From: Paracoccaceae bacterium
GTDB taxonomy: Bacteria; Pseudomonadota; Alphaproteobacteria; Rhodobacterales; Rhodobacteraceae
Reading direction: 5' to 3'
Assembly (NCBI GenBank): GCA_041397225.1
Contig: JAWKXB010000001.1
Location: 431,391 to 495,390, forward strand
DNA length: 64,000 nt
The notes beneath the pieces are model-generated. The model had not been told where the DNA came from. It ran no database searches and saw only the letters and a list, made by a program, of their open reading frames with translations. A program made the translations under genes and the position numbers. Numbering within the stretch: position 1 is the stretch's first letter; each line of letters opens with the position of its first letter. This document shows positions 1-24,917 of the stretch, piece after piece.

Positions 1-1064
1 TCGGTGAACAGTCGCGGGCCGGGCGTCAGGCCCCAGATCACCATGCCGCCGAGAAGGATCGCAGTGGTGGGCGAACCGGGGATCCCCAGCGTCAGCATCG
101 GCAACATGGAGCCGGTGGAGGCGGAGTTGTTCGCGGCCTCGGGCGCGGCCACGCCGTCAGGGTTGCCCTTGCCGTAGGAATCCGGGTCTTTCGACGTCAG
201 CTTGCTGATCCCATAGGCCATGAGAGAACCCGGCGTCGCGCCCGCGGCCGGAAGGATTCCGACGAAGAAGCCGAGAAGCGAGCCGATCGACATACCCTTC
301 CAGCCCGTCCTGAATGACTCCTTGGTGTCATTCACCACGCCCTTGACGCTGATCTTGGCTTCGGTCGAGGTGATCTTGCCGCGCGTGGTGTCGATGGTCC
401 AAAGCATCTCGCCGATACCGTAGACGCCGATCGCCAGCACCAGGAAGTTGATGCCGTGAAGGAAGCCCGAGATGTCGAAGAAGACCAGCCGCGGAGCGCC
501 CGAAATCTCATCAAAACCAACCGCCGCAAAGACAAGGCCCAGGCAGATCGACAGGACCGTCTTGGGGATGTCGTCGCCGCCCAGGCCCACGAAGGTCGCG
601 AACGCCAGGAGCATCAGCGCGAAGATCTCCGGCGAGCCGAAGCTGAGCGCGACCGAAGCCAGGATCGGGGCGAACATCGTGAACAGGATGATCGAGACGG
701 AACCGCCGACGAAGGACGCGATGGCCGCCGTCACCAGAGCCAGACCGGCCTTGCCCTTCAGCGCCAGTGGCCGCCCGTCGAACGTAGTGGCCACAGCTGT
801 CGAAGCGCCCGGAATCCCCAACGTGATCGAACTTATCGCGCCGCCATACATCGCACCGTAGTAGATGGCGGCCAGAAAGATGATGGCAGAGGCGGGTGGC
901 ACCAGAAAGGTGATCGGCAAGAGGATCGCCACGCCGTTGACCGAACCCAGGCCGGGCATCATGCCGATGAACAACCCCAAAGTGACGCCCACGACGATCA
1001 GGATCAGGTTGATCGGCTGGACCGCCTCGAGAAGGCCGTCTGAGAGATGTGCGATTATTTCCAT
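1..1064 (-). CDS. tctA: Tripartite tricarboxylate transporter large permease TctA (C-terminal part runs off the window)
   Basis: Absent from the ORF track because it is open at the window edge. My minus-strand translation from ATG 1064 gives MEIIAHLSDGLLEAVQPINLILIVVGVTLGLFIGMMPGLG...LGIPGSPTTAILLGGMVIWGLTPGP, a polytopic TctA-type sequence. tctB and tctC lie immediately upstream. Confidence 0.85.
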   Translation of the reverse strand, partial: MEIIAHLSDGLLEAVQPINLILIVVGVTLGLFIGMMPGLGSVNGVAILLPITFLVPPASAIIFLAAIYYGAMYGGAISSITLGIPGASTAVATTFDGRPLALKGKAGLALVTAAIASFVGGSVSIILFTMFAPILASVALSFGSPEIFALMLLAFATFVGLGGDDIPKTVLSICLGLVFAAVGFDEISGAPRLVFFDISGFLHGINFLVLAIGVYGIGEMLWTIDTTRGKITSTEAKISVKGVVNDTKESFRTGWKGMSIGSLLGFFVGILPAAGATPGSLMAYGISKLTSKDPDSYGKGNPDGVAAPEAANNSASTGSMLPMLTLGIPGSPTTAILLGGMVIWGLTPGPRLFT

Positions 1065-1111
1065 GTTTTCAGTTCACTCCCTGGTCCACGCGGACATGCG
1101 GTTCTTGAACG

Positions 1112-1615
1112 TCAGTAGATGATGGTGTTGAGGAAGTTGAAGAACGGCTCGGTGAATCCGAGGCCCTTTGGCAGGGTCACACGCATGAGCGCCTCGAAGA
1201 AAAAGAAGAACACGACCGGGGTCAGGATCGAGATCGTCAGCGACACCCACAGGGAATGTCGCCCCAGGAACCAGAGATAGTAGAACAGAAAGACCAGCAT
1301 CGCGCCGTACATCGAGATGATGCCGACGAGCGCCACGAACACGAAAATGCCGCCGAAGACCTGCAAGAGCATCTTGCGGCCCTCGGCGTCGAGAACCGGT
1401 TCGGTGGATTGCGAAGGCGGAGAGGTCCGCCTGAACGCATTGAATGCAATCAGGGCCGTGCAGATTAGCATGATCGCCGAGAGCCAGAACGGCCACGCCC
1501 CGCCTCCCGGTCCTTCACCCCTGATATAGCCGATGTTCAACTCGGTACTCTTCCACATCATGTATATGGACAGGAGGGCCAGGATGCCCGCCGTTGTGAA
1601 CTCTCCGCGCCGCAT
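1112..1615 (-). CDS. tctB: Tripartite tricarboxylate transporter small permease TctB
   Basis: 167-aa hydrophobic protein with about 4 TM segments (MRRGEFTTAGILALLSIYMMW...). A GGGAGG SD precedes the ATG. It sits between tctC and tctA. Confidence 0.8.
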   Translation of the reverse strand: MRRGEFTTAGILALLSIYMMWKSTELNIGYIRGEGPGGGAWPFWLSAIMLICTALIAFNAFRRTSPPSQSTEPVLDAEGRKMLLQVFGGIFVFVALVGIISMYGAMLVFLFYYLWFLGRHSLWVSLTISILTPVVFFFFFEALMRVTLPKGLGFTEPFFNFLNTIIY

Positions 1616-1651
1616 TGCGACCTCCCTGAGTATCGAGTGAACGATCGGGCC

Positions 1652-2620
1652 TTATTCGCCCATTTCGGCGAGCAGTTCCTTGTGACGCGTGATCTGGGTG
1701 TCCCAGTAGGCGTGCTGCTCTTCCGGAGTCATCCAGAGCGGCGACAGGCTTTCGGTTTCCATGTAGCCCTGCCACTCCTCAGACTCGTAGATCGTCTTGA
1801 AGAGGTTCTGGTAGTACTCGGCGGCTTCGGCCGACTGCCCCGGCGCACCAACCACGGCACGCTGGTTGTAGTAGCTGAAGTCCTGGCCCTTCTCCTTCAC
1901 GGTCGGAACATCCGGGAACGCCGGCATCCGCTCGTCCGAGAAGGCAAGCAGCGGAACCACGTCGCCATTGGCATAAAAGCCCTTGGTCTCAGACGGGTTG
2001 TTCACGGTCGCCATGATCTGCTGGCCGGCGAGATCCTTGGCCACGTCGCCACCACCCTTGTACGGGATGTACTTGACCTTGATGTCGAAGGCCTTCTCCA
2101 GAAACGCGATGACGATCGAGTCTTCCTGACCCTTGCCGGTGCCGCCCATGATGTACTCGTCCGACGACTTCACGGTTTCGAGCCACTGCTCGAAGGTCGT
2201 GATGCCGCTGTCCTTGTGGACCCACAGGATGAAAGGATCGACGCCCATCATCGCGATCGGCGTGAAGGTCGTGACGTCAATGTCAAGGTCCGGCTGACGC
2301 AACGGCGTGGTGAAGAAAGAGTTGAGCGTCACGAGGATCGTGTGGTCCGGGTCGGACGCGGTGTTGAGCGCGATCAACGCCTCGGCGCCCGACCCGCCGC
2401 CCTTGTTGTTGGGAACCAGCGGACGGTTGGTCAGATCCTTCTTTTCCGCGACGGATTGAAGAAAGCGGGCGATCTGGTCAGCGCCGCCACCGGCACCGGC
2501 CATGATGACGAAATCCACGGGCTTGTTCGGTTCCCATGCCTGGGCCGCCCCCGCGATTGTCATCAGGCCAAGCGCAGCCGTACCGACAATTCTGGACAGT
2601 AGGTTTGTTGTAGTAGCCAT
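1652..2620 (-). CDS. tctC: Tripartite tricarboxylate transporter substrate-binding protein (Bug/TctC family)
   Basis: The track ORF opens at TTG 2644. ATG 2620 has a GGGAGGA SD and yields the signal peptide MATTTNLLSRIVGTAALGLMTIAGAAQA. The mature part is Bug/TctC-like (VDFVIMAGAGGGADQIARF). Confidence 0.85.
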   Translation of the reverse strand: MATTTNLLSRIVGTAALGLMTIAGAAQAWEPNKPVDFVIMAGAGGGADQIARFLQSVAEKKDLTNRPLVPNNKGGGSGAEALIALNTASDPDHTILVTLNSFFTTPLRQPDLDIDVTTFTPIAMMGVDPFILWVHKDSGITTFEQWLETVKSSDEYIMGGTGKGQEDSIVIAFLEKAFDIKVKYIPYKGGGDVAKDLAGQQIMATVNNPSETKGFYANGDVVPLLAFSDERMPAFPDVPTVKEKGQDFSYYNQRAVVGAPGQSAEAAEYYQNLFKTIYESEEWQGYMETESLSPLWMTPEEQHAYWDTQITRHKELLAEMGE

Positions 2621-2723
2621 TTGGTCCTCCCTTTGGCTTTTCAATGTGCAGCGGGAGTGTCCCGCTGGTGGTGAGACCGTTCTTGGCGCGGTCTTTGCAA
2701 TCTTTGTCGTTCCGCAACACCCT

Positions 2724-3581
2724 TCAGTGGTTCAGGAGCACCGGCAGCTTTGCGGTATCCACGATCGTCTGTGTATTGCCGCCGAAGACGGTTTCCCTTT
2801 CGTGGCTGTCGCCATAGGCGCCCATGATCATCATGTCGGCGCCAAGCTCGGCGCTGACGCGCAAAAGTTCGCCGCCCACCTTGCGGCTGGACGAGAAGTT
2901 CTCCACCGTCGCCTTGATGCCGTGCAGATCCAGATAGGCCAGCAGCTCGTCCGTCGAGGTTCCCGGTCCGGAATTCGATCCGTTGGACAGGATCCAGATC
3001 GTATCTGCCGCGCGCAGAACACTTTTGCATTGTGACAGGGCGCGCGCCGCCTCGGCGCTGCCGTTCCAGGCGATAGTGACCTTCGCAGACAGGGTTTGCG
3101 GCGGCGTCGCGGCAGGCGGACACATCAGGACCGGACGGCCCGAATGGAACAGCGCCGCCTTGAGCGTGTTGTGGCCTAGGTTCCGATCGCGATCGGGCTT
3201 GGCCACCGCGATCATGTCGGCAAGCCGTCCGCGCCGCTTGATGACATCGACCTGCCGCCCGGCCTCCTCGACGAAGGAAACCGAGGCCGCCTTGCCGATC
3301 TGCGCGCCGGTCGCATCCAGGTTCAGCTTTCCCGCCAGCGCTTCAAGCTCGGCCCGCAGTCCGGCCTCTTCCTGGTCGGCGACCTGATAGGACTGCTTGA
3401 TGATCTGATTGCGCAGGAATTCGGGGATGTGAACGCCGTAGGGCATGAGGTCTTCAGGACGAGGGCGGCAATGGACAACCTCGATATGAGCGACATGGCG
3501 ATGCGCGACCGCCGCGGCGTGGGCGAGGACGTTGTCGCCCTTGCCGTCGCCCCTGACCGGTACCAGAATCTTGCGTATCAA
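2724..3581 (-). CDS. Universal stress protein (tandem UspA domains)
   Basis: 285 aa with two Usp-like halves. The C-terminal half carries MMIMGAYGDSHERETVFGGNTQTIV. TTG start with a GAGGAG SD. It lies 12 nt downstream of fhs. Confidence 0.75.
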   Translation of the reverse strand: MIRKILVPVRGDGKGDNVLAHAAAVAHRHVAHIEVVHCRPRPEDLMPYGVHIPEFLRNQIIKQSYQVADQEEAGLRAELEALAGKLNLDATGAQIGKAASVSFVEEAGRQVDVIKRRGRLADMIAVAKPDRDRNLGHNTLKAALFHSGRPVLMCPPAATPPQTLSAKVTIAWNGSAEAARALSQCKSVLRAADTIWILSNGSNSGPGTSTDELLAYLDLHGIKATVENFSSSRKVGGELLRVSAELGADMMIMGAYGDSHERETVFGGNTQTIVDTAKLPVLLNH

Positions 3582-3593
3582 TTCGGTCTCTCC

Positions 3594-5261
3594 TCAGAAC
3601 AGGCCGTCGATCAGGCCGTCCTCGTTGATGCGGATGCTCTCGGCGGACGGAACCCTCGGCAGGCCCGGCATCGTCATGATCTCGCCGCAGATCACCACGA
3701 CAAAGCCGGCCCCGGCAGACAGCCGAACTTCGCGCACCGGCAAGGAATGCCCGCGCGGTGCGCCGCGACGGTTCGGGTCGGTCGTGAAGGAATACTGCGT
3801 CTTGGCCATGCAGACCGGCAGCTTGCCGTAGCCCTGTTCTTCCCAGGTCCTGAGCTGATCGCGGATCGATTTGTCGGCCAGCACCTCGTCGGCGCGGTAG
3901 ATGCGTTTTGCGATGGTCTCGATCTTCTCGAACAGGCCCATGTCGTCGGGATAGAGCGGCGCGAACTGCGCCGCCCCGCTTTCGACGATCGACACGACCT
4001 TCTTGGCCAGATCCTTGATCCCGGCAGACCCCTTGGCCCAGTGCTTGCAAAGCACCGCCTCCGAACCCTGAGACAAGACGTAGTTTTTGATCGCCTGCAC
4101 TTCGGCGTCGGTGTCCGACACGAAGTGGTTGATCGCCACCACCGCGGGAACCCCGAACTGCTTCACGTTCTCGATATGCTGGCCAAGATTGGCGCAGCCC
4201 TTCTTTACCGCATCCACGTTCTCGGAGCCGAGGTCGGCCTTCGCCACCCCGCCGTTCATCTTCATCGCCCGCACAGTGGCGACGATGACCACGGCCTCGG
4301 GTTTCAGTCCAGCCTTGCGGCACTTGATGTCGAAGAACTTTTCGGCGCCAAGATCGGCACCGAAGCCGGCTTCGGTGACCACGTAATCCGCCAGCTTCAG
4401 CGCCGTAGTGGTGGCCACGACCGAATTGCAGCCATGCGCGATGTTGGCGAAAGGGCCGCCATGCACGAAAGCCGGGTTGTTCTCGAGCGTCTGCACGAGA
4501 TTGGGCTGCATCGCCTGCTGCAAGAGGACCGTCATCGCGCCGTCGGCCTTGATGTCGCGGGCATAAACGGGTGACTTGTCACGGCGATAGGCGACGATGA
4601 TGTCGCCCAAGCGCTTTTCGAGATCCTTGAGGTCGGTCGCAAGGCAGAGGATCGCCATGACCTCGGAGGCGACCGTGATATCGAAGCCCGTCTGGCGCGG
4701 GAAGCCGTTTGCCACGCCGCCAAGGTTGACGACAGTATCGCGAAGCGCGCGATCGTTCATGTCCATCACGCGGCGGTAGGGAATGCGGCGGATGTCGATT
4801 TCCAGCTCGTTCCCCCAGTAGATGTGGTTGTCGAGCATCGCGGCCAGAAGGTTGTGGGCCGAGGTGATGGCGTGGAAATCGCCGGTGAAGTGGAGGTTCA
4901 TGTCCTCCATCGGCACCACCTGCGCCATGCCGCCCCCGGCTGCGCCGCCTTTCATGCCGAAGTTCGGGCCAAGCGAGGCTTCTCGAATACAGATTGCCGC
5001 CTTCTTGCCGATCGCGTTCAGCCCGTCGCCGAGGCCGACCGTAGTGGTCGTCTTGCCCTCACCCGCCGGGGTCGGGTTGATCGCCGTCACAAGGATCAGG
5101 TGGCCGTTCTTCTTCCTGGACAGCGACTTGATGAACTCTTCCGACACCTTGGCCTTGTCATGCCCGAAGGGCAGAAGATGCTCGGTCGGGATGTCCAGCT
5201 TCGCTCCGATCTCCTGGATCGGCTTCTTCTTGGCTTTGCGGGCGATTTCGATATCTGACAT
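3594..5261 (-). CDS. fhs: Formate--tetrahydrofolate ligase
   Basis: 555 aa, [25 protein letters not shown]..., with the nucleotide loop [14 protein letters not shown]. Full-length FTHFS architecture. Confidence 0.95.
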
Positions 5262-5288
5262 GAGTTTTCCTAGCCGAGCTGAATTGAT

Positions 5289-6218
5289 TCAGGTGCCGAG
5301 CACATCGCCCGCCGAAAGACCGGCGGACGCCGCCCACTCGGCGGCCGTGATCTTGCCGCCGCCGGCAGGTTTGACCCGCTTCACAAGGATGCGCCCGCCG
5401 ATGCACTGAACGGTGACGCCGTCGTCCGAGACGTCCATGATCTTGCTGGATACCCCGTCGCCGGGGACACGCGCGGAATCGTAGACCTGGACTTCTTCGC
5501 CCTTGTGCGTCGTCCATGCGCCGGGGGAGGGGTTTGTGCCGCGAATGAGGTCGTAGACCTGCCCGACCGGCTTGTTCCAGTCGATATGCGCGTGCTTCCT
5601 AGTGCAGCGTCGCTCATATGTCGCCTTGCTTTCGTCAGGCACGATGTGCGGCGGATTGCCTTTACGGAAGAGATCGCAGACCTCGAGGACGGATTCGATC
5701 GCCGAGGGGTAGATCTTCTTGAAGTAGAGGTCGATCACCGTGTCGTCGGGGCCGATCTCGCATTCCCACTGCAGAAGGCTGTCGCCCTCGTCGAGCCCGT
5801 CGGACGGATAGAACCAGCTGTAGCCGGATTTCTTCGACCCCATGATGATAGGCCAGTTCACCGCACTCGGCCCGCGGTGCAGCGGCAGGAGCGAGGGATG
5901 GAAGCAGATCGAGCCATGCCTAGGCGTATCCCGAGCGGCCTCCGGCACGAAGACGTTGACGAAGGCCATGACCATCAGGTCGGCCTTGTAGCCCGCGAGC
6001 TTGTCGAGCGTCTTTTGATCCTCGAAGTTCGCGGGCTGTTCGATCGGCAAACCCTTTTCCAGCGCGAATTCCTTGATCGGATCGGCGGGCTTGCCCTCTT
6101 TATCCGGCTCGCAATAGACGGCCACGACCTCGTCCTCGCCATGCTCGAGGATCTTCGCCAACGCGTCCTTCCCGAACGCCTGCTGGCCCATCACGATGAG
6201 GCGCATCGCATCGCTCAT
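5289..6218 (-). CDS. Stand-alone formyltransferase resembling the N-terminal domain of 10-formyl-THF dehydrogenase
   Basis: 309 aa with Formyl_trans N+C layout. Motifs [20 protein letters not shown] and SDGLDEGD. Colinear, from my memory of the sequence, with the ALDH1L1 N-terminal hydrolase domain. The start overlaps the frc stop (ATGA). Confidence 0.7.
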
Positions 6219-7489
6219 TCCGCGGCCACCTTGTTGACGTCGCCGACCGCGCCGGAGCCGATGATCCGCTCAAGCTCCTCGCCCTCGTAGCCGAGCACCT
6301 TCGACAGGATTTCCGACGTGTGCTCGCCCAGAAGCGGCGAGCGTGTCACCTCGACGGGGCTGTCGGACATCTTGATCGGACAGCCCACGGAAAGGTATTT
6401 GCCCCGCTCGGGGTGATCGACCTCGACAATGGTGCCGGTCGCGCGCAGCCCCTCGTCCTCGGCGATCTCCTTCATGCTCAGGATCGGGCCGACGGGAATG
6501 TCATGCGGGTTGCAGATATCCATGACCTCGAACTTGGTCTTGGTCATCGTCCAATCCTCGATGGCGCCGAAGATCTGGTTCAGTCGCGGCAGACGCGCTT
6601 TCGGCGTGGCGAAATCGGGATCGGACTTCCACTCGGGCTTGCCGATTACATCGCAGACCTTTTCCCATACGGCGGCCTGCGTGATGAAATAGGTGTAGGC
6701 GTTCGGGTCGGTTTCCCAGCCTTTGCACTTCAGGATGCGCCCCGGCTGGCCTCCGCCGGAATCGTTCCCGGCCCGTGGCGTCGCATCGCCGAACTCGATA
6801 CCTTCGCCGAACTGCGAGTATTCCGTCAGCGGGCCGGCTTCCAATCGCTGCTGATCCCGCAGTTTGACGCGGCAAAGGTTCAGAACCCCGTCCTGCATCG
6901 CGGCCAGCACCTTCTGGCCGCGTCCGCTTTTCTCGCGCTGGAACAAGGCCGAGACGATCCCGAGGGCAAGGTGCAGGCCAGTGCCGCTGTCGCCGATCTG
7001 TGCGCCCGTCACCAAGGGCGGTCCATCGCGGAACCCGGTGGTCGAGGCGGACCCGCCAGCGCATTGCGCCACATTCTCGTAGACCTTGCAGTCCTCGTAC
7101 TTGCCTGGGCCAAAGCCCTTTACCGAGGCGACGATGATCCGCGGATTGATCTTCTGGATATTCTCCCACGAGAACCCCATTCGGTCGAGCGCACCGGGGG
7201 CAAAGTTCTCGACCAGCACGTCGCACGTCTCGATCAGTCTGGTCAGAACTTCCTTGCCGATTTCGTTCTTCGAGTTAATCTCGATCGAGCGCTTGTTATG
7301 GTTCAGCATCGTGAAATAGAGACTGTCTGCCCCCGGCTTGTCGACCAGTTGCTTGCGCGTCGCATCACCCACGCCGGGGCGTTCCACCTTGATCACATCC
7401 GCGCCGAGCCAAGCCAGAAGCTGGGTGCAGGTCGGCCCGGACTGCACATGCGTGAAATCGAGAACCTTGATGCCTTCGAGAGCTTTCAT
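6215..7489 (-). CDS. frc: Formyl-CoA:oxalate CoA-transferase
   Basis: 424 aa, [36 protein letters not shown]..., a class III CoA-transferase. Near-colinear with O. formigenes Frc / E. coli YfdW as I recall them. Adjacent to oxc. Confidence 0.92.
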
Positions 7490-7528
7490 TACGAAATCCT
7501 GTCGTTACGGGTTTTCCTGCGCGCCTGA

Positions 7529-9280
7529 CTACTTCTTGCCAACGACGCTGACCGGGTTGAGGCTGCCGATATTGCCGCTTTCCTTGCCCGCGGCGGGGTC
7601 GATCATGGCGTTGATCAGCGTTGGCTTGCCCGAATCCATGGCTTCATTGACCGCGCGTGTCAGTTCGTCGGGATTCGTGACCTGAACGCCGACACCGCCG
7701 AAAGCCTGCATCATCACGTCGTAGCGTGCGTTCTCGACAAAGACGGTCGTCGCCACATCAGGGCCACCCGACTTGTTCACATCCGTGCCGCGGTAGATGC
7801 CGTTGTTGTTGAAGACCACGATGCAGACCGGCAGCTTGTAGCGGCAGATCGTCTCAACCTCCATGCCGGAGAAGCCGAAGGCGCTGTCGCCCTCGATCGC
7901 CAGAACCGGATGGCCGGTTTCTACCGCCGCGGCGATCGCGCTGCCCATGCCGACCCCCATCACTCCCCAGGTGCCGACATCAAGGCGCTTACGCGGCTTC
8001 GACATGTCGATGATCGACCGGGCGAAATCGAGCGTGTTGGCGCCCTCGTTCACCAGCATCGCGTCCGGACGTTCCGCGATGATCCGCTTCAGCGCGCCCA
8101 GCGCGCCTTCGTAGTCCATCGGGGAGTTATTGTTCTGAAGCTTGGTCGCCATCTTCGCGACATTCGCGTCCTTCTTGGATTTGACTGCACCGGTCCATTC
8201 CGCCGACGGCTTCTTCCAGTCCTTGCCCATGCCGTCGAGCAGCGCCGACAGCACCGATCCGATGTCGCCGACCAGCGGGGCGGCGATTTCGACGTTGCTG
8301 TCCATCTCCTTGGGCTCGATGTCGATCTGGACAAACCTGGTCGAATGCGGCTCGCCCCACTGCTTGCCTTTCCCGTGCGACAAGAGCCAGTTGAGCCGCG
8401 CACCGACCATGATCACGACGTCGGCCTCTTTCAGCACGAGCGACCGTGCCGGACTGGCCGACAGTTCATGCGTGTCGGGCAGAAGACCCTTGGCCATGCT
8501 CATCGGGAGATAGGGGATGCCGCTGGTTTCAACGAATTTCTTCACCAGATCATCCGCTTGCGCATAGGCCGCGCCCTTGCCGAGGATGATGAGCGGCTTT
8601 TTCGCGCCCCTGATCACGTCGAGCGCGCGCCTGACCGCCGCAGGTGCCGGAATTTGCGCTGGCGCCGGGTCGATCACCTTGACCAGAGACTTCTGGCCTT
8701 CGACCTCGTCGATCACCTGGCCCAGAAGTGCGCCGGGAATATCGAGATAGACGCCGCCGGGACGTCCGGAGACTGCTGCGCGGATTGCGCGTGCGACGCC
8801 GATGCCGATATCCCGTGCATGCAGAATGCGGTAGGCGGCTTTGCAAAGCGGCTTGGCGATCGCGAGTTGGTCCATCTCTTCATAGTCGCCCTGCATCAGA
8901 TCGACGATTTCGCGCTCGGACGATCCCGAAATCAGGATCATAGGCCAACAGTTCGTCGTGGCATGCGCCAGCGCCGTCAGACCATTCAGAAAACCCGGTG
9001 CCGAAACCGTGAGACAGATGCCCGGCTTCCTGGTCAGGAATCCGGCTACGGCAGCCGCGTTGCCCGCATTCTGTTCATGCCGGAACGAAAGGACGCGAAT
9101 GCCCGCCGCCTGGGCCATGCGGCCAAGATCGGTGATCGGAATGCCCGGCACGCCGTAGATCGTGCTGACGTCGTTCAGCTTGAGCGCGTCGATCAGAAGG
9201 TGAAAACCATCTGTCAGCGCCCCCGACGCGGTGTCATCTTTCTTCGCATCCAATGCGGGCGCCGTGCTGGTCGTCGTCAT
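7529..9280 (-). CDS. oxc: Oxalyl-CoA decarboxylase (ThDP-dependent)
   Basis: 583 aa. ThDP motif [33 protein letters not shown]. Directly upstream of frc. Confidence 0.9.
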
Positions 9281-9307
9281 TTTCGTCCTCGTGATGTCCG
9301 TTGGAAT

Positions 9308-10096
9308 TCAGCCGGCCATGCTTTTCAGCGAGCCGAGAGTCTCTAGTCTCGTCCATGTCTTGCTGATGTGGTCGTGCAGCCGCATCGTGTGTTCCCGCAC
9401 CCGACGGGATGCGAGGTCTGCGTCCCTCGCCATCAGCGCGTCGATGATCTGCATGTGATCGGCAACCGAACGGCGGGCACGGTCGCTTTCGCCCATCGCC
9501 CGCCGCCGCACTGCCTGCATATGGGTGAACAGGCCGTCCGCGGTCGTGCGCAGAAGCGAGCAGCCGGAAAGCTCAAGTATGGTCTGATGGAATTTGATGT
9601 TGGCGTCCGAATACTCCTCGATATCCGCCCGCTCCACATCGCTGCTGTGCTTGATCGCGAAGTTCCGCAATGCCTGAAGGTCGTGTTCGCTGGCGTTCTC
9701 GGTCGCCAGGCGCGCGGCCATGCTCTCGAGCGCGGCCCAGGTCACGACCATTTCAAGAATCTCTTCGCGCGACTTGCGGCAGACGAAGACGCCCTTGCGC
9801 GGAAGGATCTCGATCAGCCCGTCCTGCGCCAGCCGCGCCAGCGCCTCGCGGATCGGCGTCCTTGAAATCCCCAACCGCTCCGCCATCTGCCGCTCATCCA
9901 GACGGAGGTCGGCGTCGGGCTTGTAGATATCCATTTCCAGTATCGCGGCGCGGAGCACCTTGAAGGTGTGATCCTTCAGCGTGAAGTTCTCAGCGATGGG
10001 GCTAAGCTTGTCGCCGATCGACACCTGCCACGTCCTCCCACGGTACGTCGCGTCCATCATCGAGCCAGCGGAGCGCGTTCGTATGTGGTATACCAT
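9308..10096 (-). CDS. GntR-family transcriptional regulator (FadR/FCD subfamily)
   Basis: The wHTH is LDERQMAERLGISRTPIREALARLAQDGLIEILPRKGVFV, followed by an all-helical FCD-like C-terminus. The ATG at 10096 lies inside a palindromic operator, so the real start may be ATG 10060 or 10057. The gene ends 27 nt upstream of oxc. Confidence 0.85.
   Translation of the reverse strand: MVYHIRTRSAGSMMDATYRGRTWQVSIGDKLSPIAENFTLKDHTFKVLRAAILEMDIYKPDADLRLDERQMAERLGISRTPIREALARLAQDGLIEILPRKGVFVCRKSREEILEMVVTWAALESMAARLATENASEHDLQALRNFAIKHSSDVERADIEEYSDANIKFHQTILELSGCSLLRTTADGLFTHMQAVRRRAMGESDRARRSVADHMQIIDALMARDADLASRRVREHTMRLHDHISKTWTRLETLGSLKSMAG
10081..10095. promoter_or_regulatory. Candidate GntR operator, copy 1 (GTATGTGGTATACCA; core palindrome TGGTATACCA)
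   Basis: Perfect 10-bp palindrome fitting the FadR-subfamily consensus t.GT.n.AC.a. The 15-mer is repeated in inverted orientation at 10171-10185. Confidence 0.6.
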
Positions 10097-10154
10097 ACAC
10101 CTCGCGTCTTAACCGTCAAACCATTTCTTCTCCTTTGTTTCCTCGCAAAAAAGG

Positions 10155-10185
10155 TTGACAGCCGATGTTCTGGTATACCACATAC
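10155..10185. promoter_or_regulatory. Candidate promoter -35 (TTGACA, 10155-10160) plus GntR operator copy 2 (TGGTATACCACATAC, 10171-10185)
   Basis: Exact reverse complement of the 10081-10095 15-mer. It sits 10 nt downstream of a consensus TTGACA and upstream of the isochorismatase-sucCD-like operon. Confidence 0.55.
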
Positions 10186-10216
10186 CACCTAGATTTCGTT
10201 CCGGGGGACATGCGAT

Positions 10217-10759
10217 TTGCTGATCAGGGCAAACGATTCGGCGCTCATCGTCATCGATATGCAGGAGCGTTTGGTTCCCGCCATGCAGGCCCCCGCCCGC
10301 ACCATCCGCAACACCAGGCTGCTGCTTCATGCCGCTGCGAAAACCGGCGTGCCCGCGCTGCTGACGGAACAGTACCCGCAAGGGCTGGGCCCCACCGTTC
10401 CCGAGATCAGGAAAGCAGCAGGCGACAGCACTATCCTGCCGAAGATGCATTTTTCATGCATGGAGGATCAGGGCTTTGCTGCTGCGTTCCGCGCTCTCGA
10501 CCGGCGTCAGGCGATCCTGACCGGGATGGAGGCGCATATATGCGTCGTGCAGACTGCCGCCAGCCTGGTCGAAGCGGGATTCGACGTGTTCGTCGTGTCT
10601 GACGCGACAGCCTCAAGAACCATCGAAAGCGAACAGGCCTGCCTTGCCCGGCTCGGTGCGGCTGGCGTAAGCATCGTCACGACCGAGATGGTGATCTTCG
10701 AATGGCTGGGGCAGGCTGGCACCGAAGCCTTCAAGGAAATGCTGCCGCTGATAAAGTGA
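10217..10759 (+). CDS. Isochorismatase-family hydrolase
   Basis: 180 aa, ALIVIDMQERLV...ILTGMEAHICVVQTAASL (catalytic Cys region). TTG start with a GGGGGA SD. Confidence 0.8.
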   Translation: MLIRANDSALIVIDMQERLVPAMQAPARTIRNTRLLLHAAAKTGVPALLTEQYPQGLGPTVPEIRKAAGDSTILPKMHFSCMEDQGFAAAFRALDRRQAILTGMEAHICVVQTAASLVEAGFDVFVVSDATASRTIESEQACLARLGAAGVSIVTTEMVIFEWLGQAGTEAFKEMLPLIK

Positions 10760-10780
10760 CACGACGACAGGGAGAAACCG

Positions 10781-11974
10781 ATGAACATCCACGAACATCA
10801 GGCCAAGGAAGTCCTGAAGGGCTTTGGCGCACCGGTCGCGAAAGGCGTCGCCATCACCGACATTGATCAGGCAGAGGCGGCCGTGAGCGCACTTCCGGGT
10901 CCGGTCTGGGTGGTGAAGAGCCAGATTCACGCAGGTGGTCGCGGCAAGGGCAAGTTCAAGGAGCTTGGACCCGACGCGAAGGGCGGCGTTCGCGTCTCCT
11001 TCTCAGCCGAGGATGCGCTGGCTAACGTGAAGGAGATGTTCGGCAAGACGCTTGTGACCAAGCAGACCGGCCCCTCCGGCAAGCAGGTCAACCGCCTCTA
11101 TATCGAAGACGGAGCCGACATCGACCGGGAACTCTACCTGTCGATCCTCGTCGACCGCGAAACCGGCAAGACGTCCTTCGTCGCCTCGACCGAAGGCGGC
11201 ATGGATATCGAAGCGGTGGCCGAGGACACGCCCGAGAAGATCCACACCGTCGCTATCTCCGCATCGGTCGGCGTGACCAAGGCAGACGCGGAAAGACTTG
11301 CCGACGCCTACAAACTGACCGGCGACGCGCGCGATCAGGGAACGAGTCTTTTCAAGATGCTTTACGAAGCCTTCACCAGCAAGGACATGAGCCTTCTGGA
11401 GATCAACCCGCTGATCGTCACCAAGTCGAACGACATCCAGGTGCTCGACGCCAAGGTCTCGTTCGACGGCAACGCGCTTTTCCGCCATCCTGAAATCATG
11501 GCCTATCGAGACGAGAGCGAGGAGGACGCCAAGGAGATCGAAGCCTCAAGGCATGACCTCGCCTATATCGCCCTCGATGGGGAAATCGGCTGCATGGTCA
11601 ACGGCGCCGGGCTTGCCATGGCAACGATGGACATTATCAAGCTTTACGGCGCCGAGCCTGCCAACTTCCTCGACGTGGGTGGCGGTGCCAGCAGGGAAAA
11701 GGTGACGGCGGCCTTCAAGATCATCACGTCCGATCCGCAGGTCAAAGGCATCCTGGTCAACATCTTCGGCGGCATCATGCGCTGCGACGTGATCGCCGAG
11801 GGCGTGGTCGAAGCGGTGAAGGAGGTCGGACTCAAGGTGCCGCTTGTCGTGCGGCTCGAAGGCACCAGGGTCGCCGAGGGCAAGGACATCATCAACAAGA
11901 GCGGCCTCAATGTCATCGCCGCCGACGATCTGGACGACGCTGCACAGAAGATCGTCAGGGCTGTGAAAGGGTAA
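10781..11974 (+). CDS. sucC: ADP-forming succinate--CoA ligase beta-subunit family (SucC or paralogue)
   Basis: 397 aa, [19 protein letters not shown]... (ATP-grasp), [25 protein letters not shown]. There is no mdh upstream and no sucAB downstream, so substrate specificity is uncertain. Confidence 0.8.
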
Positions 11975-11979
11975 GAGGC

Positions 11980-12879
11980 ATGTCAATTCTCATCGACAGG
12001 AACACCAGGATCATTGTGCAGGGTCTGACCGGCAAAACCGGCACCTTCCACACCGAACAGGCGCTCGCCTATCACGGGACCAAGATGGTCGCCGGAACCC
12101 ATCCGAAGAAGGGCGGCACAAACTGGACCGGCTCGAACGGCGAAAGCCTGCCGATCTATGCCAGCGTCGCCGAGGCGAAGGAAGCCACCGGCGCGACGGC
12201 AAGCGTCATCTACGTGCCGCCCGCGGGCGCAGCCGCAGCGATCGAAGAGGCGATCGATGCCGGGATCGACCTCATCACCTGCATCACCGAAGGGGTGCCG
12301 GTGCTGGACATGGTCCGCGTCAAGGAAAAGCTCGACGCTTCGAAAAGCCGGCTGATCGGCCCAAACTGCCCGGGGCTTCTCACGCCGAACGAATGCAAGA
12401 TCGGCATCATGCCCGGCTCGATCTTCAAGAAGGGCTCGGTCGGTGTCCTGTCCCGCTCCGGCACGCTGACCTACGAGGCGGTCTACCAGACCTCGCAGGC
12501 CGGCCTTGGCCAGACCACCGCGGTCGGCATCGGCGGCGACCCGGTGAAGGGCACCGAGTTCATCGACGTGCTCGAACTCTTCCTGGCCGACCCCGAGACC
12601 CATTCGATCATCATGATCGGTGAAATCGGCGGTTCGGCCGAGGAGGACGCAGCGCAGTTCCTCAAGGACGAGGCGAAGAAGGGGCGATCCAAGCCGACCG
12701 TCGGCTTCATTGCCGGCCGCACTGCACCGCCGGGTCGTACGATGGGTCACGCCGGTGCCGTAATTTCCGGTGGAAAGGGCGGCGCCGAGGACAAGATCGA
12801 GGCGATGCAATCCGCGGGCATCCGGGTCTCTCCCTCACCTGCGAAACTTGGTGAAACGTTGGTCGAGCTTCTGCGATAG
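11980..12879 (+). CDS. sucD: Succinate--CoA ligase alpha-subunit family (SucD or paralogue)
   Basis: 299 aa. CoA-binding [11 protein letters not shown], the SRSGTLTYE loop, and the phospho-His motif [11 protein letters not shown]. Confidence 0.8.
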
Positions 12880-12988
12880 GACGCATCGGATCGAAGTTGG
12901 TCTATCCGGACGAAGAATGTCGGGTTTGGCGCAGAACCCGCGCGAGAGTCGGTGAAGTAACGCGGTGACAGCAGAAAGGACATGCGAA

Positions 12989-14041
12989 ATGGCCTACAGG
13001 ATCCTCATTCTCGGCGCCTCCTACGGCTCGCTGCTCGGAACCAAGTTCATCGCGGCAGGTCATGACGTCACCCTTGTCTGCCGCGCCGAAACTGCCGATC
13101 TCATCAATTCCGAGGGAACCGAGGTTCGGATCAAGCTGCGCGACGAAGACAAGCATCGCAGCTTCTTCTCCCGCGCGCTGCAGGGTGCGATGGATGCAAG
13201 AACGCCCGAAGATGCGCGTCCGGAGAACTACGACCTCATCTGCCTCGCGATGCAGGAACCGCAATATTCGCACCCTTCGCTGAAGGATCTGCTTGCGCGC
13301 ATCGCCAAGACGAAGGTCGCCTGCATGTCGATCATGAACATGCCGCCGCTTCCTTACCTCGAGCGCATCCCGGGCCTCGATTGCACAGGGTTAAGGGGTG
13401 CTTTCCTCGACCCGGCGATCTGGGATCCGTTCGATCCCGAACTGATGACGCTCTGTTCGCCCGACCCGCAGGCGTTCAGACCGCCCGAGGAAAAACCCAA
13501 CGTCCTGCATGTCGGCCTTCCGACCAATTTCAAGGTGTCGAGATTCAAGGACGCCAAACTCAACGCCATGCTCGACGCGCTTGAAGCCGATGTCGAGGCC
13601 TACCGGGTCGACGGCAACGACGTGCCGGTCAAACTGCGTGTGTTCGACTCGCTCTTCGTGCCGTTCGCGAAATGGGCGATGCTGGCGACCGGCAACTACC
13701 GCTGCATCACGAGGGACGGTCCGCGCGCCATCAAGGATGCGGTTCATGGCGATATCAAAAAATCGAAGGAAATCTATGACTTCGTGAACAGCGTCGTCGA
13801 GAGCCTTGGCGCGGACCCCGAGGACATGGTCCCGTTCGAAAAATACGCGGCGGCAGCGATGAACCTTCTGAAGCCGTCCTCGGCAGCACGCGCCGTCTAT
13901 GCGGGCGCAAAGAATATCGAGCGCGTCGACAAGCTCATCAAGCTGGTCGCCGACACGCTTGAAATGTCCCATCCCGCCATCACTGAAACGGTCGCGATCG
14001 TTGATGAGAAGCTGGAGTTGAACCAGACCGGCGGCGCGTGA
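12989..14041 (+). CDS. NAD(P)-binding oxidoreductase, distantly ketopantoate-reductase (PanE/ApbA)-like
   Basis: ATG 12989 (AAAGGA SD) gives MAYRILILGASYGSLLGTKFIAAGHDVTLVCR, a Rossmann fold. PanE-like features further on are DLICLAMQ, KWAMLATGN and SSAARA. The assignment is by eye and weak. Confidence 0.5.
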   Translation: MAYRILILGASYGSLLGTKFIAAGHDVTLVCRAETADLINSEGTEVRIKLRDEDKHRSFFSRALQGAMDARTPEDARPENYDLICLAMQEPQYSHPSLKDLLARIAKTKVACMSIMNMPPLPYLERIPGLDCTGLRGAFLDPAIWDPFDPELMTLCSPDPQAFRPPEEKPNVLHVGLPTNFKVSRFKDAKLNAMLDALEADVEAYRVDGNDVPVKLRVFDSLFVPFAKWAMLATGNYRCITRDGPRAIKDAVHGDIKKSKEIYDFVNSVVESLGADPEDMVPFEKYAAAAMNLLKPSSAARAVYAGAKNIERVDKLIKLVADTLEMSHPAITETVAIVDEKLELNQTGGA

Positions 14042-18776: not shown

Positions 18777-19058
18777 ATGCCGCTTCCCCTTGCTCCGATC
18801 GTCGGTGTGGCGATCCGCTACGGCCTTGTTGTCGCCGCCGCCTATGGCGTCCGGCGCGCGCTTAGGCGCGGCCGCATCGACCAGCGCGCCGAGGATGCGA
18901 TGGACGCGATGGACGAGGGGGTCGCAGTGCACCGCCCGAAGGACCGCAGTCAGACCAACGCTGCAGCCCGGTTCCGGCGCGTGATTCGGCTGGGCGGCGG
19001 CCACGGCTTTGAAGTCGACGCCGCGGCACTCGCCCGCTTCCGTGTCCGCAAGGTCTGA
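18777..19058 (+). CDS. Hypothetical small protein (one N-terminal TM segment)
   Basis: 93 aa with a strong SD (GAAGGAGGG), MPLPLAPIVGVAIRYGLVVAAAYGV.... No family recognised. Confidence 0.55.
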   Translation: MPLPLAPIVGVAIRYGLVVAAAYGVRRALRRGRIDQRAEDAMDAMDEGVAVHRPKDRSQTNAAARFRRVIRLGGGHGFEVDAAALARFRVRKV

Positions 19059-19072
19059 AAGGTCCAGCCCAT

Positions 19073-19681
19073 ATGCGCCTCTACCACTCGCCGACGACGC
19101 CTTTCGGACGCAAGGTCATGGTTCTGCTGCTCGAAACCGGCCAAGCCGGCGAGGTCGAGGTCGTGTCCGCTTCCGGAACTCCGGTCGATGCGGGCACCAT
19201 GCCGCTTGGACAGAATCCTCTGGGGAAGATCCCGGTGCTGGAACTCGATGACGGGACCGCGATCTATGACAGCCGCGTCATCTGCCGGTATCTCGATGAC
19301 CGCGCCGGTGGATCTCTCTTTCCCGCGAGGCCGGGGTTGTGGCGCACATTGACGCTTGAGGCGACGGCGGACGGCATGCTCGATGCCGCAATTCTGATGG
19401 TTTACGAATCGCGCGTTCGGCCCGAGAGAATGCGCTTTGCAACATGGGTCGAGGGGCAGTGGAACAAGATCGCGCGCGCGCTCGATGCGCTTGAAGGCCA
19501 GTGGCTCGGCCATCTGAACGGCCCGCTCGACATGGGGCAGGTCGCGGTTGCCTGCGCACTTTCCTATCTCGATTTCCGTCATGCCGACCGCAACTGGCGC
19601 GAAGGGCATCCGGGACTTGCGGCATGGCAAGCGGAAATCGCTCGACGCGACAGCCTGAAAGCGACCGAGCCGCAGGGGTGA
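19073..19681 (+). CDS. Glutathione S-transferase
   Basis: 202 aa. Thioredoxin-like N-domain (YHSPTTPFGRKV, KIPVLELDDGTAIYDSRVICRYL) and a helical C-domain. Confidence 0.85.
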   Translation: MRLYHSPTTPFGRKVMVLLLETGQAGEVEVVSASGTPVDAGTMPLGQNPLGKIPVLELDDGTAIYDSRVICRYLDDRAGGSLFPARPGLWRTLTLEATADGMLDAAILMVYESRVRPERMRFATWVEGQWNKIARALDALEGQWLGHLNGPLDMGQVAVACALSYLDFRHADRNWREGHPGLAAWQAEIARRDSLKATEPQG

Positions 19682-20316
19682 GCCTCCCGCCTGGTCCCTT
19701 CTTGACGGTCTGGGCGCTGCTGGCGGTGAACATTGCATCGCCCGGTCCGAACGTTCTGAACACGATCACAACCGCGATGGGGTCCGGGCGCGGTCCGGCA
19801 CTCGCATCGGCGCTTGGCGTGGCGCTTGGGATCGGACTCTGGTGCCTTGGCATGACGCTTGGCATGTCGGCGTTGTTTCAGGCCTTTCCAGCCGCGCGTA
19901 CCTTGATGACGCTGGTTGCTGCGGGTCTTCTTCTTTGGTTCGCGGCGCGGTTTCTGCGCGCCGCATGGCGCGGCTTTCACCGCCGCGTGGGCACGCTTTC
20001 GGGCGAAACCGGTCTGAGCTTCCGCATGGCCTTTTTTCGCTCGCTCGCAGTGAACGCGACCAATCCGAAAGCCCTGACCACTTGGGTGGTGATCCTTTCG
20101 CTCTTTCCCGTCGCCCGGGCGAACGCGGTGGATGTTGCAACACTAGGCGTCGGCGCATCGGCGATCGGTTTTCTCATTCACGCGCTTTACGGCGTGGCCT
20201 TTTCGACGGCACCCGCCGCGCGCGCCTATCTGCGCCTTGCACCGGTCATCAATGCCGCAGTCGGGCTTTTCTTCGCGGGGTTCGCGATCCGGTTGCTTGC
20301 AGGACTTGCACCCTGA
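19678..20316 (+). CDS. LysE/RhtB-family amino-acid exporter
   Basis: GTG 19678 overlaps the GST stop (GTGA). About 6 TM segments. Family motifs ASPGPNVL and ATNPKAL. The track ORF start at 19501 lies inside the GST gene. Confidence 0.8.
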   Translation: MSLPPGPFLTVWALLAVNIASPGPNVLNTITTAMGSGRGPALASALGVALGIGLWCLGMTLGMSALFQAFPAARTLMTLVAAGLLLWFAARFLRAAWRGFHRRVGTLSGETGLSFRMAFFRSLAVNATNPKALTTWVVILSLFPVARANAVDVATLGVGASAIGFLIHALYGVAFSTAPAARAYLRLAPVINAAVGLFFAGFAIRLLAGLAP

Positions 20317-24217: not shown

Positions 24218-24917
24218 GGCCGCCCCGCCCTAGATATGCGGCGAGCGCGGGGGGCGGATCGGCGAAAAGCGCTGCGGTCGATCGCGGCGGGTGCGCCTTG
24301 CCCTCAGCGACAAGAATCGTCTGGTCGGCAAGGCGGTGGGCGTCATCCGGGTCATGGCTGACCATCAGCACGGTCGCACCGGTTTCGCTGGCGATCCCGG
24401 CGACCAGGGCCAGCATCTCAGCCTTTAGGGCGGGGCCAAGGGCAGAGAACGGTTCATCCAGCAGCATGAGCGGCCGGGCGCGCAGAAGCGTGCGGGCCAG
24501 CGCCACGCGGCTTTGCTGTCCACCGGACAGTGTCGCCGGCTTGCGGCCTTCCAACCCGGCAAGCCCGGTACGGCGCAGCGCCTCGTCGACCGACGCTTGT
24601 TGCGCTGCCGAAAGCCGGAGGTCGGCTCGGAGCCCGAGACCGACATTCTGCCCAACGGTGAGGTGCGGGAAGAGGTTCTGATCCTGAAACAGGATGGAAA
24701 GCGGCCTTTCGCCCGGCGCCGTGTCCGTGATGTCCTCGTCGTTCCAGAGAACACGACCCGAGGCGGCCGCGAAGAAGCCCGCGATCACCGACAGAAGCGT
24801 CGATTTGCCCGCACCCGAAGGGCCGATCACCGCGGTCAGCGCGCCCGCCGCGACGGAAAAGTCCGCTGTCAGCCGGAAATCGTCCTGCGTGATGACAAGG
24901 TTTTCAAGCGTCAGCAT
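24204..24917 (-). CDS. thiQ: Thiamine ABC transporter ATP-binding protein
   Basis: 237 aa. Walker A GPSGAGKST, signature LSGGQQSRVALAR, Walker B LMLLDEP. Last gene of a TPP-riboswitch-led operon. Confidence 0.85.
   Translation of the reverse strand: MLTLENLVITQDDFRLTADFSVAAGALTAVIGPSGAGKSTLLSVIAGFFAAASGRVLWNDEDITDTAPGERPLSILFQDQNLFPHLTVGQNVGLGLRADLRLSAAQQASVDEALRRTGLAGLEGRKPATLSGGQQSRVALARTLLRARPLMLLDEPFSALGPALKAEMLALVAGIASETGATVLMVSHDPDDAHRLADQTILVAEGKAHPPRSTAALFADPPPALAAYLGRGGLSDR

Follow-up and report, generated by a model that had tools for sequence, protein, structure and literature searches.

The stretch of DNA analysed here, 64,000 nucleotides from the genome of a Paracoccaceae bacterium (GCA_041397225.1, contig JAWKXB010000001.1, positions 431,391 to 495,390; the window, to whose numbering unlabelled coordinates refer), harbors an oxalate operon. 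In this operon a gene for a stand-alone protein of 309 amino acids (FT, P0001) lies between frc, which encodes formyl-CoA:oxalate CoA-transferase, and fhs, which encodes formate-tetrahydrofolate ligase. Judged by its sequence, FT is confirmed as a protein of the type found at the N-terminus of 10-formyltetrahydrofolate dehydrogenase (FDH, ALDH1L1), and is neither an Fmt nor a PurN nor a PurU. Its gene is tightly linked to frc, and a new observation is that other bacteria possess, in the same operon slot, an evolutionarily maintained fusion of FT to Fhs. On balance we take FT to be a reversible 10-formyltetrahydrofolate (10-formyl-THF):coenzyme A (CoA) formyltransferase (10-formyl-THF + CoA <-> THF + formyl-CoA), with CoA as the presumed second substrate. 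More tentatively, we propose that its net flux runs toward formyl-CoA and would serve to prime oxalate degradation.

Sequence relationships of FT

Pfam analysis of FT found the domains Formyl_trans_N (4.8e-25) and Formyl_trans_C (2.8e-19) and no others. The protein scores 133.4 bits on the NCBIfam fmt model TIGR00460, under the equivalog cut-off of 201.5, and its scores on the NCBIfam ArnA and PurN models are far under their cut-offs. The PurU model TIGR00655 gave no match at E 1e-5, and the N-terminal ACT domain is not among the Pfam matches. The best PDB sequence matches are the N-terminal domains of the human, rat and zebrafish 10-formyl-THF dehydrogenases (E 1e-54 to 1e-52), followed by weaker matches to Fmt (3e-35), ArnA (2e-21), HypX (4e-8) and PurN (3e-4). 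The AlphaFold2 model of FT (predicted local distance difference test score 96) has the zebrafish FDH N-terminal domain (4qpd, E 5e-36) as its top Foldseek match; the fold comparison cannot split FDH from Fmt, with template modelling (TM) scores even higher for Fmt (0.91-0.93).

In an 80-row tree FT falls inside a 41-row clade (Shimodaira-Hasegawa-like approximate likelihood ratio test, SH-aLRT, 99) which comprises the eukaryotic FDH N-domains, many stand-alone proteins of ca. 310 amino acids and, on a long branch, HypX's N-terminal domain. E. coli Fmt and the genome's own Fmt form a group separate from this clade. After removal of HypX and PurU each group still lies on one side of a branch (SH-aLRT 99-100), and the approximately unbiased (AU) test rejects FT plus Fmt as a single clade (p 0.029, for a group named after the tree was seen). 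FT and the eukaryotic FDH group are not direct sisters. Distant members of the 41-row clade sit in unrelated gene contexts, so that the oxalate link described below belongs to a sub-clade and not to the whole FDH-like clade.

The initial annotation had already assigned FT to the FDH-N-terminal type rather than to Fmt or PurN, and model cut-offs, PDB matches, alignment, tree and AU test uphold this. The motifs on which it relied (HPSLLP..HRG.SA.NW, DGLD.GD and ECE..PDDTV..LY) are present and align with the human and rat FDH N-domains (E 1e-54). The source genome (3.4 Mb in 3 contigs, 92% complete) contains three Formyl_trans_N genes in all, namely purN after purM, a true fmt after def, and FT; the separate fmt that was to be looked for elsewhere in the genome is thus the def-linked gene, which scores 266.5 bits.

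Active site

Three codons of FT define the catalytic center and the position by which FDH-like and Fmt-like proteins differ:

5898-5900, minus strand: His107 (FDH His106), the catalytic His of HxSLLPxxxG; invariant in alignments A1, A2 and A4, role from PMC4388273
5790-5792, minus strand: Asp143 (FDH Asp142), catalytic Asp, without variation in A1 and A4; role from PMC4388273
5904-5906, minus strand: Cys105, which occupies the site of Ile104 in FDH and of the catalytic Asn in Fmt, ArnA and PurN; alignment A1

The HxSLLPxxxG motif of the FDH N-domain is present in FT, and alignment A1 shows that FT keeps His107, Ser109, the SLLP turn, Arg115-Gly116 and Asp143. His107, Ser109 and Asp143 correspond to His106, Ser108 and Asp142, reported as the catalytic set of the FDH N-domain (PMC4388273). 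Folate-pocket residues were mapped by hand from the pairwise alignment of FT with FDH: F90, V91, F136, G141, L142 and Y201 are kept, while M92 is replaced by E and I95 by R. Two residues before the His, Fmt and ArnA have Asn in their rows; the FDH-like rows show Ile, Val or Cys there, HypX shows Val and FT shows Cys (Cys105-Phe-His107). In Fmt, the basic insertion loop after beta-2 serves tRNA recognition. The corresponding loop of FT is 5 residues shorter than in the two Fmt rows of A1 and is without the basic RGKK insertion.

According to PMC4388273, the Asn of Fmt, ArnA and PurN activates the formyl group for an amine nucleophile, and an I104N mutant of FDH has nearly lost its hydrolase activity. 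The formyl recipient of the FDH N-domain is described as a 4'-phosphopantetheine thiol (PMC8748788), and its 'hydrolase' activity in vitro is reported to require millimolar beta-mercaptoethanol, which in the rat structure takes the place of the formyl group (PMC4388273). The thiol acceptor, the thiol-requiring hydrolase and the missing Asn together indicate that the branch of formyltransferases which holds FT is directed at thiols.

In public databases the FT family is named 'methionyl-tRNA formyltransferase'. That FT is a second enzyme of this kind would agree with the name and with a fold equally near to Fmt (TM 0.91-0.93), but the probability of this is negligible in our judgement. FT scores 133.4 bits where the cut-off is 201.5 and the def-linked fmt of the same genome reaches 266.5; it has neither the Asn of N-x-H nor the 5-residue basic insertion, belongs to a separate clade (AU test p 0.029) and is confined to frc-containing genomes in the family sample described below. 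Net charge and pI of the C-terminal subdomain were also considered as an indicator of tRNA binding and were discarded since FT, FDH and Fmt overlap.

Linkage to frc

Relatives of FT are encoded in 462 stretches of species-representative genomes, and the best 80 of these (77-89% identity) were used for locus counts. By taxon they belong to Rhodobacterales (51), Hyphomicrobiales (11), Rhodospirillales (6) and Geminicoccales (3), with a small number of gammaproteobacteria. Culturable carriers include Roseovarius mucosus DSM 17069 (L052) and Sedimentitalea nanhaiensis DSM 24252 (L015). In 74 of the 76 loci with enough flank frc lies directly upstream of FT; directly downstream, 49 of 67 loci have fhs and 15 of 67 have usp, for a universal stress protein.

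A family sample of 150 genera gave the same picture: FT occurs in 13 of 16 genomes with frc, including the window's genome, and in 0 of 135 without frc (one match of 34% identity, in G145, was left out of the family counts). Likewise, in a sample of 400 genomes from the phylum all 7 FT-like genes (41-78% identity) fall within the 21 genomes that have frc, against 0 of 379 that do not, and 5 of the 7 adjoin frc. The co-occurrence with frc and oxc, a check suggested with the initial annotation, thus turned out to be strongly conserved. The strict dependence on frc indicates that the other substrate of FT belongs to the chemistry of Frc, i.e. formyl-CoA/CoA.

The co-directional cluster of the window has the order gntR/FCD - oxc - frc - FT - fhs - usp - tctC - tctB - tctA, and the order gntR-oxc-frc-FT-(fhs)-usp-tctCBA is seen across the 80 loci and in the loci of the fused form:

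9308-10096, minus strand: GntR/FCD-family regulator, first gene of the cluster; Pfam GntR and FCD, position kept in related loci
7529-9280, minus strand: oxc, oxalyl-CoA decarboxylase; TIGR03254 980 bits, cut-off 739
6215-7489, minus strand: frc, formyl-CoA:oxalate CoA-transferase; TIGR03253 709 bits, cut-off 504
6226-6232, minus strand: AAGGTGG, Shine-Dalgarno-like motif 7 nt 5' of the FT ATG, within the 3' end of frc; sequence reading
5289-6218, minus strand: FT, 309-aa stand-alone FDH-N-terminal-like formyltransferase, candidate 10-formyl-THF:CoA formyltransferase; Pfam, NCBIfam, PDB match and AlphaFold2
3594-5261, minus strand: fhs, operon copy, formate-tetrahydrofolate ligase; NF010030 926 bits, cut-off 652
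2724-3581, minus strand: usp, universal stress protein with the Usp domain in two stretches; Pfam Usp, kept downstream in related loci
3-2644, minus strand: tctC (1652-2644), tctB (1112-1615) and tctA (3-1064, runs off the window); Pfam TctC, TctB and TctA

The start codon of FT (ATG, 6218-6216) shares bases with the stop codon of frc (TGA, 6217-6215), giving ATGA, and the FT stop codon (5291-5289) is separated by 27 nt from the fhs ATG at 5261. Both features of the translational coupling that the initial annotation described are therefore borne out in this operon, but the overlap is not kept among relatives: over 74 related loci the frc-FT gap has a median of 38 nt and lies between -21 and +136 nt, ca. 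17 of the loci having an overlap, and many FT homologs begin at the residue matching Met5. The conserved trait is the tight linkage of frc and FT, not translational coupling as such.

Metagenomic homologs of 48-50% identity likewise lie between a CoA-transferase and an FTHFS gene, and a 41%-identical homolog occurs in a differently ordered locus, TauE-FT-tctCBA-regulator-oxc-frc. Copy number of frc and presence of FT showed no clear complementarity in the family and phylum samples. Complex prediction for Frc and FT (alignments A3 and A4) gave a score of 0.00, which speaks neither for nor against a complex; it covered one Frc chain although Frc is an interlocked dimer. A full-text literature search found no paper that assigns a role to an FT gene in oxalate operons, in agreement with the initial annotation, which knew of none.

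Two observations on individual loci may be added. In several otherwise syntenic loci, L022 (2900-4579), L033 (2854-4539), L055 (2124-3788) and L088 (6113-7846), the gene before frc encodes a thiamine diphosphate enzyme only ca. 25% identical to the window's Oxc, possibly a divergent decarboxylase or an enzyme resembling 2-hydroxyacyl-CoA lyase. The FT gene of one metagenome-assembled genome (L048:6001-6921) has an internal stop codon and is thus either a pseudogene or misassembled.

Fusion of FT to Fhs

When longer proteins were searched, polypeptides of 878-898 amino acids were retrieved with Formyl_trans_N, Formyl_trans_C and FTHFS domains which are 49-54% identical to FT. These FT::Fhs proteins form ca. 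13 protein clusters (90% identity) and have Pro/Ala/Ser/Lys-rich linkers of 20-45 residues; the linkers vary by lineage and thus behave like real inter-domain linkers. In P0274, residues 1-300 correspond to FT (54% identity, with the His and Asp kept), followed by a Ser/Gly/Thr-rich linker and, at residues 325-878, a complete Fhs (74% identity). The identical protein recurs on at least 24 contigs, the longest of 623 kb, and is shown for three samples. Its locus reads gntR-oxc-frc-[FT::Fhs], with tctBCA divergent, and the locus of P0277, another fused lineage, is laid out likewise. In a close unfused relative (L111), FT and fhs share one frame with a single stop codon between them; eleven genome loci that match the whole fused query are unfused and have stop codons at the junction. 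The search for longer relatives revealed no fusions to an acyl carrier protein or aldehyde dehydrogenase (ALDH) near FT's clade; the fusions to Fhs were found instead.

Several other apparent fusions were rejected. An Frc::FT protein (P0285) lies on a contig full of split and merged genes and is an assembly frameshift artefact; P0271, P0290 and P0292, with Arg-rich junk linkers to Fhs, are probably artefacts of frameshift read-through; and a 610-aa open reading frame (ORF) in G412 has an N-terminal part of 296 aa without any domain, which indicates a spurious extension. Apparent Oxc+FT and FT+Fhs proteins also occur in eukaryotic records (P0287, 920 aa, from a transcriptome, and P0299, 977 aa, from an amphipod) and probably stem from contaminating bacteria or from a polycistronic transcript that was read through.

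The fusion and the tight linkage to Fhs indicate that FT and Fhs share a metabolite, which is necessarily 10-formyl-THF/THF. This bears on the possibility that FT is a folate-free formyl-CoA thioesterase, or that it formylates another acceptor, for example the thiol of a carrier protein or some small amine from oxalate metabolism. The frc linkage by itself indicates only a formyl-CoA-related substrate, and the 41-row clade, with its many stand-alone members in unrelated contexts, is functionally diverse. Such activities nevertheless seem very improbable: FT retains most of FDH's folate-pocket residues, its linkage and fusion to Fhs point to a folate substrate, the Asn required for amine acceptors is absent, and the ORF list and Pfam reveal no carrier-protein gene in the operon. 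A thioesterase would, moreover, act on a compound that hydrolyses spontaneously anyway.

Distribution of fhs and purU

Besides the operon fhs, the window's genome has another copy on contig C2 (G000:C2:520324-521988, locus L106:6325-7989), 85% identical to it, which makes the operon fhs an extra, dedicated copy here; the C2 copy is immediately followed by an ORF of 303 aa (L106:7992-8903), the size of folD. Five genomes with an fhs-less oxalate operon each have one fhs elsewhere, and in several family members the operon copy is the sole fhs. Overall, fhs is present in 134 of the 151 family genomes.

The purU gene occurs in 40 of 151 family genomes, but in 0 of the 13 with FT and in 0 of the 3 which have frc and no FT. 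With 12 further genomes, purU is absent from all 25 FT-containing alphaproteobacterial genomes checked. Given purU in 22% of the fhs-containing genomes, the naive chance of 0 in 13 is ca. 0.04, uncorrected for phylogeny. Outside the alphaproteobacteria, G394, G454 and G412 have an FT-like gene near frc, directly after it in G394 and G454 and at 8 kb in G412, together with purU and without fhs. The loci of G394 and G454 (G394:C1:450798-454366, G454:C1:1303046-1307134; L103 and L104) consist of two tandem frc genes and then the FT-like gene (42-44% identity); both genomes are complete and small (1.7-1.9 Mb).

The absence of purU from the FT-containing alphaproteobacteria would fit FT as a 10-formyl-THF hydrolase, a non-orthologous PurU that frees THF when oxalate-derived formate drives Fhs to trap folate. 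The initial annotation had considered such a valve opposite Fhs as its alternative. The FDH N-domain on its own goes by the name 'hydrolase' (PMC4388273), the window's genome is without purU, and purU is missing from the FT-containing family genomes (0 of 13, against 40 of 151 overall) and from the 12 further alphaproteobacteria. On the other hand, the hydrolase activity of FDH depends on millimolar thiol in vitro, an FT::Fhs fusion would be a formate-dependent ATPase, and co-induction with fhs in one operon would amount to a futile cycle. FT-like genes occur alongside purU in the three fhs-less genomes G394, G454 and G412, and the three family genomes with frc and without FT also lack purU, so that the anticorrelation is not specific for FT. 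A general folate valve would not be expected to be tied so strictly to frc (0 of 135 and 0 of 379 genomes without it). The hydrolase is therefore disfavoured, and we regard it as rather improbable.

Proposed reaction and role

Each turn of the Frc and Oxc cycle preserves one thioester, and no new one is made; the cycle can therefore not start itself and will decay through hydrolysis of formyl-CoA, for which a half-life of 1.9 h is reported in quenched reaction mixtures (PMC3720670). In E. coli the cycle is described as being primed by YfdE (PMC3720670). We suggest that FT may contribute to an analogous function in three steps. Fhs would convert formate, ATP and THF to 10-formyl-THF, ADP and Pi; FT would transfer the formyl group to the thiol of free CoA (10-formyl-THF + CoA -> formyl-CoA + THF); and Frc would convert formyl-CoA and oxalate to oxalyl-CoA and formate. 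The sum would be oxalate + ATP + CoA -> oxalyl-CoA + ADP + Pi, with formate and THF as mere carriers. In this way FT and Fhs would start the autocatalytic cycle and would replace thioester lost to the lability of formyl-CoA or to withdrawal of oxalyl-CoA. In genomes without fhs, 10-formyl-THF derived from FolD could play an equivalent part.

Fhs and FT, separate or fused, might accordingly constitute a folate-mediated, ADP-forming formyl-CoA synthetase (formate + ATP + CoA -> formyl-CoA + ADP + Pi), a proposal we make with reserve. With equal reserve, the combination of FT, Fhs and Frc is put forward as a possible, previously undescribed one-ATP route of oxalate activation that keeps the Frc/Oxc cycle charged. 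The initial annotation had called a formyl transfer from formyl-CoA to THF chemically plausible, and precedents exist for exchange of the formyl group between the CoA thiol and N10 of THF: transfer from 10-formyl-THF to CoA is reported as shown for the N-domain of HypX (PMC6802093; PMC12134894, citing Schulz et al.), and the stand-alone LctF is reported to transfer the formyl group of 10-formyl-THF to free CoA in vitro (PMC11730586). FDH, HypX and LctF likewise run in the direction proposed for FT.

FT could also work in the opposite direction and drain Oxc-made formyl-CoA into the folate pool (formyl-CoA + THF -> 10-formyl-THF + CoA), providing C1 units for biosynthesis or serine-type assimilation and avoiding both free formate and the low affinity of Fhs. 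This direction is thermodynamically downhill by our own estimate, the evidence from linkage and active site is equal to that for the formation of formyl-CoA, and in fhs-less genomes an FT-like gene beside frc would be the only route for oxalate carbon to formyl-THF. The initial annotation had seen in it a plausible ATP-free entry of oxalate-derived C1 units into the folate pool. The known stoichiometry of Frc and Oxc, however, suggests that no ATP is saved: formyl-CoA is the CoA donor of Frc, so that each molecule diverted is a donor lost, oxalate has to be re-activated elsewhere for at least one ATP equivalent, and nothing is gained over Fhs. Pfam analysis of the operon genes found no second oxalate-activating enzyme beside Frc. 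One expects FT and Fhs to be fused if their steps are consecutive, and not if they make one product in parallel; the natural fusions thus point to FT acting in series with Fhs via 10-formyl-THF. Furthermore, the fhs-less genomes have purU, and FT followed by PurU would merely hydrolyse formyl-CoA. A net drain is therefore unlikely in our view.

Several points weigh against the priming role, or against CoA as the acceptor. We estimate from textbook hydrolysis energies that formyl transfer toward formyl-CoA is uphill by ca. +10 to +18 kJ/mol; a literature search did not find a value for the free energy of formyl-CoA hydrolysis. The step would thus require a high 10-formyl-THF/THF ratio or pull by Frc, and we estimate that Fhs at cellular ATP/ADP and millimolar formate can sustain a ratio sufficient for formyl-CoA at micromolar levels or above. 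Some 25% of the FT operons are without fhs, and three genomes that bear an FT-like gene have no fhs at all, which means that Fhs is not obligatory and that FolD would then have to supply 10-formyl-THF. The absence of purU from the FT-containing alphaproteobacteria is left unexplained by priming and is explained by a hydrolase. In the phylum sample, 14 of the 21 genomes with frc are without FT, and the three such family genomes have no YfdE-like transferase or oxalate-CoA ligase beside frc; two of these have an NAD-dependent formate dehydrogenase beside frc instead, and the missing substitute primer tells neither for nor against FT. Finally, no CoA-specific motif was identified in FT.

If the proposal is correct, the folate-bound and CoA-bound pools of activated formate are joined in central metabolism, and an explanation is at hand for the start and upkeep, in many aerobic oxalate degraders, of a cycle that is incapable of self-start. 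E. coli uses YfdE for priming, while for most other bacteria the problem is unsolved. FT and Fhs would also be a natural enzyme pair useful to synthetic C1 pathways based on formyl-CoA, in which formation of formyl-CoA from formate is a bottleneck, and the natural FT::Fhs fusion is a candidate enzyme for the reaction formate + ATP + CoA -> formyl-CoA, an activity sought in synthetic one-carbon assimilation. Thousands of database entries of the FT family are named "methionyl-tRNA formyltransferase", almost certainly wrongly. The results further suggest that the first domain of animal ALDH1L1 descended from bacterial enzymes which already worked on a pantetheine thiol.

Neighbouring genes and further observations

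The tctCBA genes, kept in related loci, encode a tripartite tricarboxylate-type transporter, presumed to serve oxalate uptake. In the gntR ORF (262 aa, 9308-10119, minus strand) the GntR match starts with residue 65 and is limited to the latter half of the model; translation may thus truly begin downstream of 10096. A sigma-70-like site (TTGACG, 16 nt, TATGGT) is present at 10119-10092, but such sites are no commoner than in shuffled sequence, and a promoter/terminator scan of positions 1-11000 found no more sites than in shuffled sequence. Divergent from the gntR-oxc operon, sucC and sucD (10781-12879, plus strand) encode an ADP-forming succinyl-CoA synthetase, with scores above the cut-offs. 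Three ORFs gave no Pfam match at E 1e-5: 12965-14041 (plus strand, 358 aa), 18950-19738 (minus strand, 262 aa) and 24904-26451 (minus strand, 515 aa).

Two DNA runs of one wastewater-metagenome study contain 94% of the sampled words of positions 3594-9280 and are probably the source of the assembly. Metatranscriptome contigs of the same study include small pieces of oxc, frc, fhs and tctC and, at thin coverage, almost nothing across FT, which argues neither for expression nor for silence.

Comparison with known systems

Among known proteins, the N-terminal domain of ALDH1L1/FDH (PDB 1s3i, 2bw0, 4qpd) is the best match of FT in sequence and fold, with 33-34% identity when structurally aligned. 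Both consist of two subdomains with a total of ca. 310 amino acids, share the active-site His, Ser and Asp and a similar folate pocket, and have no Asn before the His. The natural acceptor of the FDH domain is a pantetheine thiol, whereas that proposed for FT is free CoA. Unlike FDH, a three-domain protein with a 4'-phosphopantetheine carrier domain and an ALDH domain, FT stands alone, is bacterial and is encoded in an oxalate operon. PurU and Fmt share with FT the Formyl_trans_N catalytic core and the substrate 10-formyl-THF, but PurU has an ACT domain and no Formyl_trans_C, and Fmt has the catalytic Asn and the basic insertion.

The N-domain of HypX/HoxX (PDB 6j0p) has the Formyl_trans fold with His and Asp and, as noted above, belongs to the FDH-like clade. 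Of its catalytic trio His74, Asp80 and Asp109, the His and the second Asp are kept in FT, while the Asp80 column, assigned by eye on the C. necator row of A1, corresponds to His114. HypX is described as a fusion to an enoyl-CoA-hydratase-like decarbonylase in which CoA is bound as a prosthetic group and formyl-CoA is retained (PMC6802093, PMC12134894); Pfam found no such C-terminal domain in FT. Closer in architecture is LctF of Streptomyces lactacystinicus, accession LC830955, a stand-alone member of the formyltransferase family that is likened to FT by its described activity, the same reaction as proposed here (PMC11730586). It differs by its place in the polyketide synthase/nonribosomal peptide synthetase cluster for lactacystin, where it is reported to feed an acyltransferase domain (PMC11730586).

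In physiological role, the nearest counterpart of FT would be YfdE, encoded in the yfdXWUVE operon of E. coli. Like the proposed FT, it is operon-encoded and is reported to prime Frc/Oxc with a CoA thioester (PMC3720670). YfdE is, however, described as an acetyl-CoA:oxalate CoA-transferase with the class III CoA-transferase fold, which uses acetyl-CoA (PMC3720670), where FT would use the folate-bound formyl group.

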